Assembly (NCBI GenBank): GCA_963770565.1
Contig: CAVYQE010000011.1
Coordinates: forward strand, 388,072 to 452,071
Source: an uncultured Actinomycetota bacterium
GTDB taxonomy: Bacteria > Actinomycetota > Actinomycetes > JAFAQI01
Length of the DNA stretch: 64,000 bases
Reading direction: 5' to 3'
Part shown: positions 35,079-50,828 of the stretch, piece by piece
How positions within the stretch are numbered: position 1 is the stretch's first letter
Layout: every line of letters starts with the position of its first letter
Notes under the pieces: generated by a model
Database searches by the model: none
The model's input: the letters and a program-made list of their open reading frames with translations, nothing else
What the model was told of the DNA's origin: nothing
Translations under genes and position numbers: made by a program

Positions 35079-35139
35079 GTTGATCATGGCGAAACGCGCG
35101 ATTTTTCTCACGGAAACGGCTCGCTTCGCCATGATCAAC
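35079..35139. repeat. 61-bp palindromic element, copy 1 (arms GTTGATCATGGCGAA / TTCGCCATGATCAAC, 31-nt loop) embedding mini-ORF 35086..35220 (MAKRAIFLTETARFAMINCG..., 44 aa)
   Basis: Perfect 15-bp inverted arms; identical arms and identical loop length recur at 50768-50828; GGAG 13 nt upstream of the ATG. Confidence 0.5.
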
Positions 35140-35262
35140 TGTGGTTGCCCGACTCACCGTGCGGGCCTGCTGCTCGGTCCACAGGTCCGAGGCGGGGCCG
35201 GTTCGTCCACCGCGTCTTGAGATCCGCGGCGTCGGGCGCGACCGACTCTTAGCGTCGCGGGC

Positions 35263-36771
35263 ATGGGGGACAACAGCCGCGAGGCGGCGCTGAGCGACCG
35301 CCGGCTCGTCGCGGTCGCGATCGGGGTCTGGGCGTCGACGGCCGGGTGCACGTTGCTCGCCGCTCGGACCTCTTTCGCGCTTGCCGGCCTGGGGTCGGTG
35401 GTGGCGCTGCTGGCCCGCCCGCGGAGCACCGGCTCGGCGGTGGTGATCGCCGCGGTGGCCCTCGGGGTGGTGCTGGGCTCAGTGGTGGCCGCCTGGCACG
35501 TGCGCGCGCTGCACGGCGGTGTCGTGCCGAAGCTCGCCGCGCGACATAGCGAGGCCGACCTCGTGGTCCGGCTGGTGCGCGATCCGGTCGCCGTCGTGTC
35601 CAGCGCGGGCGGCGGGCTGACCCTCACCGACGCGACCGTCACCTCGGTGCTCACCACCGGCTGGCGGCAGGCCGACTCGCCGATCCTGGTCCTGTCGTAC
35701 GGCCGAGGCTGGGTCGGGCTGCTGCCGGGGCAACGGGTGGAGGTCTCGGGCCGGCTTGCACCCCCGCGCCGCGGAGATGACGTCGCCGCGGTCCTCGATG
35801 CGCGCGGCCCACCGTCCCTGATCGGCCGGCCACCGTGGTGGCAGCGGCTGGCCGGTCGAGCGAGGGCCGCGCTTCGAGCTGCCTGCCAGGGTCTGCCGGG
35901 GGATGTGCGCGGCCTGCTGCCCGGTCTCGTCGACGGTGACGTGTCTGCCGTGCCTGCCTCGGTGCAAGCAGATATGCGGCTCACCGGCCTCACGCACTTG
36001 GAGGCGGTCTCGGGGGAGAACGTGAGCGTCGTCCTGGCGGTCACGGTCGCCCTTGCCCAACTGCTCGGGTTGCGCCGGCGCTGGCGAATCGGGGTGGCGG
36101 CGATGGCGCTCCTCGGCTTCGTCGTGCTGGCTCGGCCGTCTCCGAGCGTGCTGCGCGCGGCGGTCATGGGTGGCATCGTGCTTGCCGGCCTCGCGCTTGG
36201 CCGCCGGGTCAGGCCACTTCGGGCGCTCGCGCTTGCCGTCACGTTGCTGCTCGGCTTGAACCCGTTCCTCGGCCGGTCGGTCGGGTTCGTGCTTTCGGTG
36301 TGTGCAACGGGCGCTCTGGTGACGGTCGCGCCGATCTGGACGGAGCGGCTGGCTCGGCACTTGCCCCGGCCGGTTGCGGTCGCGATCGCGGTGCCGGCGG
36401 CGGCACAGGTCGCCTGTACGCCGGTGCTCGTGCTGGCGTTCGGCATGCTCACGCCGTATGCGATCCCGGCCAACTTGCTGGCGGCACCGGCGGTCGCACC
36501 GGCCACCGTGCTCGGGGTCCTGTGCGCGGCGTTCGCCACGGTCTGCCGGCCACTCGCGGCACCGATCGCGTGGCTGGCCGCCATACCGACCGAGGCGATT
36601 GCCGTTGTTGCGCGAGGTCTGGCCGGTCTGCCCGGCGCGGGACTGAGGTGCCCGGGCGGCCCGGCCGCAGCTGTGCTCGCAACGGTGGCCGTCGGGGTCG
36701 TCCTCGGGGTTCGCCGGCGCCGGGCGATCGAGTCCGGCCGGCGTGACATCCTTGGCGGATGGCCGCCCTGA
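35263..36771 (+). CDS. comEC: ComEC/Rec2 competence channel protein, short form without C-terminal metallo-beta-lactamase domain
   Basis: Polytopic membrane protein with DUF4131/competence-domain signatures; ends where holA begins. Confidence 0.8.
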   Translation: MGDNSREAALSDRRLVAVAIGVWASTAGCTLLAARTSFALAGLGSVVALLARPRSTGSAVVIAAVALGVVLGSVVAAWHVRALHGGVVPKLAARHSEADLVVRLVRDPVAVVSSAGGGLTLTDATVTSVLTTGWRQADSPILVLSYGRGWVGLLPGQRVEVSGRLAPPRRGDDVAAVLDARGPPSLIGRPPWWQRLAGRARAALRAACQGLPGDVRGLLPGLVDGDVSAVPASVQADMRLTGLTHLEAVSGENVSVVLAVTVALAQLLGLRRRWRIGVAAMALLGFVVLARPSPSVLRAAVMGGIVLAGLALGRRVRPLRALALAVTLLLGLNPFLGRSVGFVLSVCATGALVTVAPIWTERLARHLPRPVAVAIAVPAAAQVACTPVLVLAFGMLTPYAIPANLLAAPAVAPATVLGVLCAAFATVCRPLAAPIAWLAAIPTEAIAVVARGLAGLPGAGLRCPGGPAAAVLATVAVGVVLGVRRRRAIESGRRDILGGWPP

Positions 36772-37721
36772 CCGTCGTCGTCGGCGATGAGGACCTGCTG
36801 GTCGCCCGGGCGGTGAGCCGCACGATTGCGGCCGCAGCTGCGGCGTCCGCCGATGCTGAGGCCGTCCCTACCGTCACCCTCGATGCCGCCCAGGTGTCGG
36901 TGGACGCACTCGCCGAGGCGCTGGCCCCGTCGTTGTTCGCCGAGGACCGGTCGATCGTCGTCCGCAACCTTCAGGATGCCGACAAGGATCTGGTGGCCGC
37001 TCTCGTCGGCTTCGCCGAAGCGCCCGAGCCGGGGGTCACGATCGTCGCCGTGCACGCCGGCGGCGCGAAGGGCAAAGCGGCGCTGGAGGCGATTCGGGAA
37101 GGCGCCGCCGAGGTGGTTACGGTCGCCCCGATCAAGACGCTGCGGGACCGTGAGCAGTTCGCGGTCGACGAGGTGAGGGCCGCCGGTGGGAGCCTCGATC
37201 GCGATGCGGCGGCTGAGCTGGTCGGCGCGATCGGCACCGACCTGCGCGAGATCGCGACCGCGTCCGCCCAGCTGGTCGCGGACGTCGGCGGCCAGATCAC
37301 CACCGCCGATGTCGCGACGTACTACCGCGGCCGCGCCGAGTCGACCGGGTTCGCGGTTGCCGATCGGGCGGTCGAAGGCGACCTCGCAGCCGCCCTCGAG
37401 ACGCTGCGCTGGGCGTTCGCGACCGGGCTCGACCCCATCTTGGTGAGCAGCTCGCTGGCGGCGAACCTGAGGTTGATCGCCCAGGTCGGCGCGGCCGGCC
37501 CCGGTTCGCCCGACGCGATCGCGGCGAAGCTGCGGATGCCGGCCTGGAAGGTGCGCCGGGCCCAGGGCTGGCTTCGCCACTGGCGACCCGAAGCGGTCGG
37601 TGAGGCGGTGTTGGCGGTCGCCGCCGCCGACGCGGATCTCAAAGGCGCCGCCGACGACGCGGCGTACGCCGTGGAGCGCGCTGTGCTCAAGGTCGCCGCT
37701 GCCGCCAGTCCGGGCGGCTAG
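36759..37721 (+). CDS. holA: DNA polymerase III delta subunit
   Basis: Conserved comEA-comEC-holA synteny; delta-subunit N-terminal fold sequence. Confidence 0.85.
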   Translation: MAALTVVVGDEDLLVARAVSRTIAAAAAASADAEAVPTVTLDAAQVSVDALAEALAPSLFAEDRSIVVRNLQDADKDLVAALVGFAEAPEPGVTIVAVHAGGAKGKAALEAIREGAAEVVTVAPIKTLRDREQFAVDEVRAAGGSLDRDAAAELVGAIGTDLREIATASAQLVADVGGQITTADVATYYRGRAESTGFAVADRAVEGDLAAALETLRWAFATGLDPILVSSSLAANLRLIAQVGAAGPGSPDAIAAKLRMPAWKVRRAQGWLRHWRPEAVGEAVLAVAAADADLKGAADDAAYAVERAVLKVAAAASPGG

Positions 37722-37759
37722 CTCCACGCGACGCGCGCCGGCCCGCACCACCCGCAGTC

Positions 37760-49597: not shown

Positions 49598-49606
49598 GGC
49601 CGGGCC

Positions 49607-50755
49607 ATGCCACCTCGTGACTACTACGCGATCCTCGGCGTCTCGCGAACCGCGACGCCCGACGAGATCAAGAAGGCCTACCGCAAGCTCGCCCGGCAAC
49701 TGCATCCCGACGTCAACCCGAGCGCGGATGCCAAGGAGCGGTTCTCCGACGTCACTGCGGCCTACGAGGTGCTCTCCGATCCGGCGAAGCGGGAGATCTT
49801 CGACCTCGGCGGCGACCCGCTGTCCGCGAGTGGTGGCGGCGCGGGCGCGGGCCCGTTCGGCGGCTTCTCGGACATCATGGATGCCTTCTTCGGCGGCGCG
49901 ACCGGGATGGGCCAGCGCGGCCCGCGATCGCGGATCCGTCCCGGCGCAGACGCACTGGTCCGCCTCGACCTCGACCTGTCGGAGACCGCCTTCGGGGTGA
50001 CCCGCGAGGTCACGCTCGACACCGCGATCCGGTGCTCGACCTGTGCCGGCGCGGGGACCGCGCCCGGCACCCATCCCGAGACCTGCCAGACCTGCAGCGG
50101 CCGCGGTGAGATCCAGTCGGTGCAGCGTTCGTTCCTCGGGCAGATCATGACGTCCAGGCCGTGCCCCGACTGCGGTGGCGTCGGGACGAAGATCACCAAC
50201 CCGTGTGCCGACTGCGGCGGTGCCGGGCGGGTCCGGGCTCGTCGTACCGTCACGATCAAGGTGCCGGCCGGAGTCGACGACGGCATGCGGCTGCGGATGT
50301 CGGGCGAGGGCGAGGTTGGTCCCGGCGGCGGCCCGCCAGGCGACCTGTACGTCGAGATCCGCGAGCGGCCGCACCCGCAGTTCACCCGCGACGAGGACGA
50401 CCTGCACTGCAAGGTGTCGCTGCCGATGACGGCTGCCGCACTCGGCACCGAGCTCACTCTCGCCACCCTCGACGGCGAGGAGAACCTGGTGATCAAGGCC
50501 GGCACGCAGGGCGGCATGGTCCAGACCCTGCGCGGGCGCGGTGTGCCGCATCTCAACCGCGGCGTCGGCCGCGGCGACCTCCACGTGCACATCGAGGTCA
50601 GCACGCCGACCCGGCTCGACGCCGAGCAGGAGCGGTTACTGCGTGAGCTGGCCGCACTGCGCGACGAGGAGAACCCACAGATCACGGTCACCAACCCGGT
50701 GACGTCCGCGAACGGCCAGGGATTGTTCTCCCGGCTCCGCGGCGCCTTCAAGTGA
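49607..50755 (+). CDS. dnaJ: chaperone DnaJ
   Basis: J-domain HPD (QLHPDVN), four CxxCxGxG zinc-finger repeats. Confidence 0.9.
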   Translation: MPPRDYYAILGVSRTATPDEIKKAYRKLARQLHPDVNPSADAKERFSDVTAAYEVLSDPAKREIFDLGGDPLSASGGGAGAGPFGGFSDIMDAFFGGATGMGQRGPRSRIRPGADALVRLDLDLSETAFGVTREVTLDTAIRCSTCAGAGTAPGTHPETCQTCSGRGEIQSVQRSFLGQIMTSRPCPDCGGVGTKITNPCADCGGAGRVRARRTVTIKVPAGVDDGMRLRMSGEGEVGPGGGPPGDLYVEIRERPHPQFTRDEDDLHCKVSLPMTAAALGTELTLATLDGEENLVIKAGTQGGMVQTLRGRGVPHLNRGVGRGDLHVHIEVSTPTRLDAEQERLLRELAALRDEENPQITVTNPVTSANGQGLFSRLRGAFK

Positions 50756-50767
50756 CCGGATGCGGGA

Positions 50768-50828
50768 GTTGATCATGGCGAAGCGCGTCAAGATCGGCAC
50801 GATCTTCGCGCATTTCGCCATGATCAAC
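50768..50828. repeat. 61-bp palindromic element, copy 2 (same 15-bp arms, 31-nt loop with nested AAGATCG/CGATCTT dyad) embedding mini-ORF 50775..50834 (MAKRVKIGTIFAHFAMINS)
   Basis: GGGAG SD 6 nt before the ATG; mini-ORF stop TGA overlaps rsmE GTG (GTGA). Confidence 0.5.

Follow-up and report, generated by a model that had tools for sequence, protein, structure and literature searches.

The 64,000-nt stretch of actinobacterial DNA analyzed here (the window) contains two copies of a 61-bp palindromic element, at positions 35079 to 35139 and 50768 to 50828. They belong to a family of dispersed palindromes that comprises about 55 copies in at least 14 species-level actinobacterial metagenome-assembled genomes (MAGs). 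The family is real and is of the same general kind as the repetitive extragenic palindromic (REP) elements and the mycobacterial TRIT hairpins; it fails the tests for a REP-RAYT system, for a miniature inverted-repeat transposable element (MITE) of the DDE type, for a classical terminator, and for a conserved small open reading frame (ORF). Judging from sequence comparison, it is probably a dispersed intergenic palindromic repeat, akin to REP, to the bacterial interspersed mosaic elements (BIMEs), and to TRIT, whose arms would be held constant by a sequence-specific factor.

Two copies of the element in the window

Copy 1 consists of arms at 35079 to 35093 and 35125 to 35139 that enclose a loop at 35094 to 35124, and copy 2 of arms at 50768 to 50782 and 50814 to 50828 around a loop at 50783 to 50813; neither copy is assigned to a strand. 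On the plus strand, the left arm of both copies reads GTTGATCATGGCGAA, and the right arm is its exact reverse complement. The preliminary description, made from the window alone, had reported twin 61-bp palindromes with perfect 15-nt arms identical between the copies and 31-nt loops that are equal in length, different in sequence, and furnished with nested dyads of their own. All of this is borne out by the coordinates (the loop of copy 2 contains an inner stem of AAGATCG/CGATCTT), and the arm matching exceeds chance: none of 100 dinucleotide shuffles yielded five or more matches at up to two mismatches.

A covariance model built from the family gives copy 1 a score of 66.8 bits on the plus strand and 65.2 bits on the minus strand, and copy 2 scores of 70.6 and 67.1 bits, respectively. 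The next-best match in the window drops to 16.7 bits, so that there are exactly two copies in these 64 kb. The plus-strand RNA of copy 1 folds at -33.9 kcal/mol (z = -3.4) and that of copy 2 at -49.8 kcal/mol (z = -7.7), in both cases far better than shuffled sequences, and the minus strand of each copy folds about equally well; each element forms one long, stable hairpin.

Distribution of the family

One search through 185,579 species-representative genomes for arm cores of 12 nt placed 15 to 45 nt apart, a pattern for which about 0.1 hit is expected by chance, matched 51 loci, far more than the two copies from which the repeat had been described. Copies with perfect arms number 2 to 11 per genome in 8 MAGs and are single in others. 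The carriers are mostly uncultured soil Actinomycetota MAGs, labeled by their depositors as Jiangellales, Frankiales, Nakamurellales, or Mycobacteriales. One match (L001) is coding sequence, and three more are outliers: a perfect 51-nt hairpin with a 27-nt loop in a betaproteobacterial Sulfuricella MAG (L049, positions 119 to 169), a 44-nt form with a 20-nt loop (L033, positions 1208 to 1251), and an intergenic copy with a 30-nt loop between convergent genes of the cultured strain Planobispora rosea JCM 3166 (L039, positions 4139 to 4192). Viral contigs contain no arm-pair matches. The source genome of the window is outside the scanned collection, in which assembly CAYNDD (loci L012 and L021) is the closest to it, at about 84 to 91% DNA identity.

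The earlier suggestion that such an element had not been described is supported by the databases and the literature. With gathering thresholds, no part of the window matches Rfam, and a search around copy 1 with E values of up to 10 gives only chance matches to miRNA-like hairpins; a literature search with the arm sequence returned only unrelated primers, and a search for actinobacterial palindromic or MITE repeats returned nothing relevant. The 61-bp palindrome family has apparently not been described so far.

Only 3 degenerate copies were found in about 385 kb of the retrieved loci. Unpaired exact arms, as would be looked for in a parent insertion sequence with the same terminal repeats, are absent from about 0.76 Mb examined, except in locus L025, where a 51-nt tandem duplication (positions 3632 to 3735) spans the right arm and flank of a copy and creates a solitary extra arm. 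This arm lies just upstream of glgC, and beyond that gene, at 5002 to 5056, the locus has another copy that is slightly degenerate.

Universal stem and variable interior

When 40 distinct 61-bp copies are aligned without gaps, the 12 inner pairs of the arms show no variation, partly by construction, given that exact cores were used for retrieval. Arm positions are paired in 99.3% of cases, and the outer two arm pairs change together, from T-A to C-G, in 11 of the 40 copies. The outer stem of 12 to 15 bp is fixed in sequence, either as GTTGATCATGGCGAA or as the compensated variant GCCGATCATGGCGAA. Since compensated changes occur only at the outermost pairs, while pairing alone would permit more of them, it is the stem sequence itself that appears to be held, which points to a sequence-specific partner. 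The arm core TTGATCATGGC (35080 to 35090 and 50769 to 50779) matches, over 11 consecutive bases, the universal 5' terminus of 16S rRNA that is targeted by primer 27F (AGAGTTTGATCMTGGCTCAG); the match may be due to chance.

The interior follows other rules. Its 13 symmetric pairs are paired at 66%, compared with 31 to 47% in slid controls, and all 13 vary on both sides. The loops sort into inner palindromes that are specific to lineages, such as GTGATCA...TGATCAC in one MAG, GCGTTATGAGC/GCTCATAACGC in another, GTGGGGC...GCCCCAC in the MAGs labeled as Jiangellaceae, and GAGCGCG...CGCGCTC-like sequences in the lineage of the window itself. The element is a universal outer stem with a free yet self-complementary interior. 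Nearly all copies have the standard geometry, with a span of 55 nt between the arm cores (61 bp in full); spans of 56 and 66 nt form minor classes, and spans of 54 and 44 nt are also present. The stem does not extend beyond the arms, as pairing between the flanks is barely above the control, and the longest direct repeat in the flanks averages 4.30 nt compared with 4.15 nt in shuffled-pair controls, i.e., no target-site duplication is detectable. On the latter ground a MITE moved by a DDE transposase was rejected as an explanation, although the inverted ends are present.

Conservation and insertion history at orthologous sites

Both window copies are found at the same sites in related genomes: copy 1 has orthologues with perfect arms between comEA and comEC (L012 and L138), and copy 2 has orthologues between dnaJ and rsmE (L021, L053, and L059). 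A metagenome scan with RsmE returned mostly distant relatives and a single further filled orthologue, L059. At these persisting sites, the loops and flanks drift between related species and the arms remain unchanged. In seven orthologous pairs, differences were counted at 1 of 210 arm positions, 66 of 237 loop positions, and 168 of 591 positions in the 40-nt flanks, a comparison that is biased by the retrieval of most of these loci for their perfect arms. Among the orthologues found through their proteins (L053/L059 and L138), 0 of 60 arm positions and 22 of 64 loop positions differ (Fisher p = 7e-8). This contrast supports the claim of the preliminary description that the conservation of the arms reflects a function at the level of DNA or RNA, and the dispersed family with same-site copies in relatives likewise supports the comparison to REP made there.

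The history of the dnaJ-rsmE junction can be read from relatives in which it is empty. The junction is filled in the window, in L053, L021, and L059, and in the outgroup L042; it is empty in L054 and in L055 to L057, which are relatives with 77% RsmE identity. In the empty junctions, the TGA stop codon of dnaJ overlaps the GTG start codon of rsmE (as GTGA) or lies 1 to 4 nt away from it. Because the junction of these relatives is empty, the element is an insertion that split a translationally coupled junction. The outgroup L042 shows 53% identity in RsmE and 78% in DnaJ; its copy ends 2 nt before the rsmE start and has a 32-nt loop of unrelated sequence. This copy may reflect a further, separate insertion into that junction; alternatively, the element may have arrived early and been lost afterward in other lineages.

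A short repeat is visible at these sites. The empty junction of L054 (positions 1996 to 2020) reads AAGTGAC-GTG-GTGACTGCG, with GTGAC present twice, 3 nt apart, and the insertions at filled dnaJ-rsmE sites are flanked by GTGAC/GTAAC and GTGAC/ATGAC. These repeats could be an excision footprint or the remnant of a 5-bp duplication, as a single case in a family that has no duplication signal; at the rsmE site, they can also be explained by the old overlap of stop and start codons.

The coexistence of filled and empty dnaJ-rsmE junctions is also what would be expected of a purely selfish element, that is, a nonautonomous hairpin transposon like REPIN or the palindrome-associated transposable element (PATE) of the IS200/IS605 family. 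Its arms would be the recognition site of a mobilizing enzyme encoded elsewhere in the genome, and its copies would look conserved through being young or gene-converted. Universal ends combined with lineage-specific interiors fit bursts off one master copy per lineage, the unrelated loop in L042 resembles a second insertion, the absence of target-site duplications is as found for elements moved by HUH/Y1 enzymes, and the lack of strand asymmetry described below is equally in keeping with this account. However, genomes that have diverged by about 10 to 16% at the nucleotide level keep 60 of 60 arm positions while their loops have changed by 34%, and conservation of resident copies counts against a selfish origin because selection for mobility does not protect individual copies. 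Moreover, no transposase or RAYT-like gene was seen beside any copy. The only gene bracketed by copies, that in L025, was considered as a mobilizing gene and rejected: it encodes GlgC, and the extra arm next to it comes from the local tandem duplication. Altogether, we regard a purely selfish element as unlikely, albeit a serious alternative.

Location relative to genes

With gene boundaries taken from a simple gene call based on G+C content at third codon positions (GC3), the copies are intergenic. The gap between the preceding stop codon and the element clusters at 6 to 28 nt (median, 18 nt), and the gap between the element and the next start codon is broad (median, 52 nt). Copies occupy 27 tandem, 11 convergent, and 2 divergent junctions, compared to a baseline of 47 convergent and 42 divergent junctions in the same loci. 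The bias toward stop codons could reflect either target preference or selection. Genes that end beside copies have unrelated housekeeping functions (they include those for CysS, FtsH, HemD, methylmalonyl-CoA mutase, H+-pyrophosphatase, and GlgC), with no functional theme among the neighboring genes. A Pfam scan of 23 neighboring proteins, 20 of them products of genes that end beside a copy, revealed no transposase.

Several known classes of sites were considered and rejected. A canonical intrinsic terminator would require a U-tract, which is absent: in 54 copies, the 10 nt that follow the hairpin contain, on either strand, a mean of 1.4 T. Neither window copy has terminator or promoter consensus sites. 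An integron attC site, which has the polarity R''(RYYYAAC)...R'(GTTRRRY) and lies in cassette arrays beside intI, does not fit on account of the reversed polarity (GTT...AAC) and of the occurrence of copies singly between housekeeping genes; parS- or dif-like sites and operators were dismissed on polarity, spacing, and position.

This distribution also bears on the idea that the arms are duplex DNA sites for a chromosomal protein involved in nucleoid structure, topology, segregation, or regulation, with the hairpin being incidental. Strict conservation of a 15-bp sequence between distant genomes, the presence of about 10 sites in each, and full symmetry between the strands would all suit such a protein, and the REP/BIME elements of Escherichia coli bind gyrase and integration host factor (IHF). 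Duplex binding, however, does not need the palindromic symmetry that the interior keeps through compensating changes. The position after stop codons and the scarcity of copies in divergent, promoter-containing spacers speak against an operator. The neighboring genes also lack a common theme, and we consider duplex-only sites improbable.

Embedded reading frames

The preliminary description had further proposed that each copy carries a translated upstream ORF, starting with MAK(R) and later reading FAMIN, and hence that the element has a dual function. Its account of the ORFs agrees with the exact coordinates. Mini-ORF 1 (35086 to 35220, plus strand) has 44 codons, with its ATG at 35086, its stop codon at 35218 to 35220, and GGAG at 35069 to 35072, 13 nt upstream. 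Mini-ORF 2 (50775 to 50834, plus strand) has 19 codons (MAKRVKIGTIFAHFAMINS), from the ATG at 50775 to the TGA at 50832 to 50834, which overlaps the rsmE GTG (50831 to 50833) as GTGA. Six nucleotides ahead of its ATG, on the same strand, is a Shine-Dalgarno (SD)-like GGGAG (50764 to 50768) that is partly paired at the base of the hairpin.

These frames do not behave as a family property. The words MAK and FAMIN are spelled because the arms read so whenever the loop has 31 nt and no stop codon. When 52 distinct copies were read on both strands (104 readings), those with the 55-nt span gave 76 readings, of which 47 contain FAMI and 29 run into a stop codon inside the loop; copies with spans of 56, 66, 54, or 44 nt never yield FAMI. 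SD-like 4-mers precede the ATG in 4 of the 104 readings, 3 of which represent the dnaJ-rsmE site, and many lineages, particularly the MAGs labeled as Jiangellaceae, have C-rich 5' flanks instead. Of the orthologues at the comEA-comEC site, L012 no longer has the GGAG and shows a 1-nt indel in the tail of the ORF, and in L138 a 32-nt loop shifts the frame so that FAMIN becomes FRHDQ (...AFRHDQ...). Mini-ORF 1 is accordingly judged from these alignments to be a by-product of the palindrome and not a conserved gene.

The dnaJ-rsmE site shows a different pattern. Here, L053, L021, and L059 all retain the GGGAG, the ATG of the arm, and an ORF of 19 codons that ends in GTGA, and in the outgroup L042 the arm ATG is in frame with rsmE and has no SD-like motif. 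Of the 11 codons of mini-ORF 2 outside the arms (10 derived from the loop plus the last one before the stop), 6 encode another amino acid in L053 than in the window. The peptide is not conserved; the ORF could relay ribosomes to rsmE, and the arrangement of GGGAG, arm ATG, and GTGA could be a local adaptation.

A translated element, in the form of a small protein or an upstream ORF with its own ribosome-binding site and a dual function, thus has in its favor an ATG-led ORF with an upstream G-rich motif at both window copies, the overlap of the second stop codon with the rsmE start, and the retention of that arrangement in three relatives. Against it stand the restriction of FAMI to standard-span copies whose loop is free of stops, the scarcity of SD-like motifs amid C-rich flanks, the decay of the frame and its start signal in the orthologues of copy 1, the amino acid replacements in mini-ORF 2, and the equal conservation of the arms on the strand that would not be translated in any gene context. 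A conserved small ORF was therefore rejected as a family property on the loss of frame, the stops in 29 of 76 readings, and the rarity of SD-like motifs, and a dual function shared by the family is likewise unsupported, as neither the frame nor the start signals are conserved. We consider translation as the explanation of the element highly improbable. As a caution for genome annotation, the embedded MAK... ORFs should not be called genes.

Relation to known palindromic repeats

The closest parallel is TRIT, a palindrome conserved in sequence and mostly bidirectional that occurs where mycobacterial genes end and for which a factor binding the double-stranded motif was proposed (Gardner et al. 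2011, PMC3152330). Both are hairpins conserved in sequence and structure at gene ends of high-GC actinobacteria that lack classical U-tract terminators. However, TRIT has been reported only in Mycobacterium, with 147 copies in M. tuberculosis, and is centered about 8 nt inside the coding sequence (PMC3152330), i.e., at about -8 relative to the stop codon, whereas a genome contains about 10 members of the 61-bp family, which start at a median of 18 nt past the stop codon. Genomes labeled Mycobacterium among the species representatives have no arm-pair matches. The 61-bp family thus differs from TRIT in distribution and position. Mycobacterial RNA polymerase requires a U-tract for termination, and hairpins that lack one have been proposed to serve as REP-like stabilizers of RNA or to define 3' ends (PMC3993855). 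Transcript ends mapped by Term-seq show little overlap with TRITs (bioRxiv 10.1101/2022.06.01.494293), which leaves the function of TRIT unsettled.

With the REP/BIME and REPIN-RAYT systems of enterobacteria, Pseudomonas, and Stenotrophomonas, the family shares extragenic palindromes at the 3' ends of genes and the absence of target-site duplications; it may also be likened to REP in that the latter form mRNA hairpins able to block 3' exonucleases and are recognized by specific proteins. The differences are equally clear. REP sequences are imperfect palindromes of about 35 nt, within a range of about 20 to 40 nt, and have a GTAG tetranucleotide conserved at the 5' end; a genome contains hundreds of them, and inverted REPs flank the gene for RAYT, a Y1/HUH transposase. 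In contrast, the present element is 61 bp long and begins with GTTG or GCCG, with no GTAG at either end; it is present in 2 to 11 perfect-arm copies per MAG, has no RAYT gene among the neighboring proteins, and combines a 15-bp invariant outer stem with a variable inner palindrome. The Correia elements of Neisseria and other MITEs are similarly small, noncoding, and intergenic, with conserved inverted ends and a variable interior, and they can join transcripts and alter the expression of neighboring genes. However, Correia elements are 100 to 155 bp long, duplicate a TA target, and contain promoter and IHF sites, and the 61-bp element is less than half as long as the upper figure of that range.

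Proposed mode of action

Copies have been inserted in unrelated intergenic regions, usually a few nucleotides past a stop codon. In the reading that we favor, the arm sequence, beyond its capacity to pair, would be recognized either by the protein that spreads the element or by a nucleic acid-binding protein of the host. Once transcribed as part of a 3' untranslated region or of an intercistronic spacer, the element would form a very stable hairpin with no U-tract, which may impede 3' exonucleases, mark a site of processing, or terminate transcription with the help of a factor, as opposed to acting as a classical intrinsic terminator. Both the ATG within the element and the MAK...FAMIN reading would be side effects of the arm sequence. 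At the dnaJ-rsmE junction, the folded hairpin would leave the dnaJ stop and the rsmE start only about 14 nt apart, so termination-reinitiation could persist; such bridging may explain why the insertion has been tolerated, or else the relay ORF may carry ribosomes through the stem. A more specific version, in which the 15-bp stem docks a conserved factor that ends or processes transcripts of high-GC actinobacteria together with the hairpin, as a nonmycobacterial counterpart of TRIT, and the dnaJ-rsmE copy has been co-opted, either by the hairpin drawing the rsmE start toward the dnaJ stop or by the arm ATG, an acquired GGGAG, and the relay ORF reestablishing the coupling disrupted by the insertion, is offered tentatively and is, in our estimate, rather doubtful.

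Several observations weigh against the favored reading. Apart from the retrieval bias of the seven-pair comparison, only three orthologues are free of arm bias, and the window itself was selected for the perfection of its copies. A count of about 10 per genome is low for a REP-like family, and neither a trans-acting factor nor a mobilizing enzyme was identified. The strands also look alike: in the 27 tandem contexts, G-U-type and A-C-type inner mismatches on the sense strand number 28 and 30, respectively, and sense and antisense folds are equally stable. Given this lack of asymmetry, selection on the sense RNA over the DNA palindrome is not indicated, and an RNA hairpin and a DNA palindrome cannot be told apart from these data.

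Genes and other features of the window

Copy 1 follows the 3' end of comEA (34094 to 35050, plus strand; Pfam domains HHH_3 and SLBB), 28 nt from its stop codon and 123 nt from the ATG of comEC (35263 to 36771, plus strand; Pfam domain Competence), the 3' end of which is overlapped by holA (36759 to 37721). The copy sits between the comEA stop codon and a conserved promoter-like block of comEC, i.e., at a place where a transcription unit would be expected to end, and comEC appears to have its own promoter downstream of the copy. The block, at 35177 to 35265, includes two GTCCACA-like motifs (GTCCACAG at 35177 to 35184 and GTCCAC at 35205 to 35210) and a TAGCGT hexamer at 35250 to 35255, 7 nt ahead of the comEC ATG. 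Both motifs and the hexamer are kept in L012 and in L138 to L141, even where the upstream gene is not comEA. The conservation of the motifs without comEA as a neighbor suggests that comEC-holA has a promoter of its own, probably a leaderless one, with a repeated operator. The GTCCACA-like motif resembles the actinobacterial DnaA box TTGTCCACA.

Copy 2 begins 12 nt after the stop codon of dnaJ (49607 to 50755, plus strand; Pfam domains DnaJ, DnaJ_C, and DnaJ_CXXCXGXG) and occupies 61 of the 75 nt between that stop codon and the GTG of rsmE, which lies 2 nt further on. The rsmE gene (50831 to 51553, plus strand) encodes the 16S rRNA U1498 methyltransferase, a homologue of PF04452 and PF20260, and its GTG start was placed by alignment of N termini and by the junction sequences.

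The window has other long palindromes at gene boundaries, none of which belongs to the 61-bp family. These are found at 615 to 692, where GCAATGTSACATTGC occurs twice, about 60 bp apart; at 17948 to 17984, a perfect hairpin with 17-bp arms; at 21546 to 21640, with 18-bp arms and a 59-nt spacer; and at 47713 to 47805, after a gene that ends at 47708, as a nested repeat block of CCCCACGCATGG...CCATGCGTGGGG that is partly common to L021. In addition, L055 encodes a 675-aa PhoH homologue (positions 7161 to 9188) in which two PhoH matches are split by a faint LAGLIDADG match; the PhoH protein of the window has 346 aa (52132 to 53172), and the L055 protein probably carries an intein.

Implications

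The family bears on how transcripts are brought to an end in actinobacteria without U-tract terminators, a matter in which TRIT has stood without explanation since 2011, and its invariant 15-bp stem offers a handle on what sequence-conserved terminal hairpins do in high-GC actinobacteria. That a second, apparently unrelated family follows the same logic, with a constant stem, an unconstrained interior, and a place where genes end, suggests a recurring solution and not a mycobacterial oddity. The 15-bp arm is a compact bait for finding the factor, and the candidate copy in the cultured Planobispora rosea JCM 3166 could serve as an experimental handle. Finally, the dnaJ-rsmE junction offers a clean natural case in which a palindrome has been inserted into an overlapping stop/start and the downstream gene has been retained.

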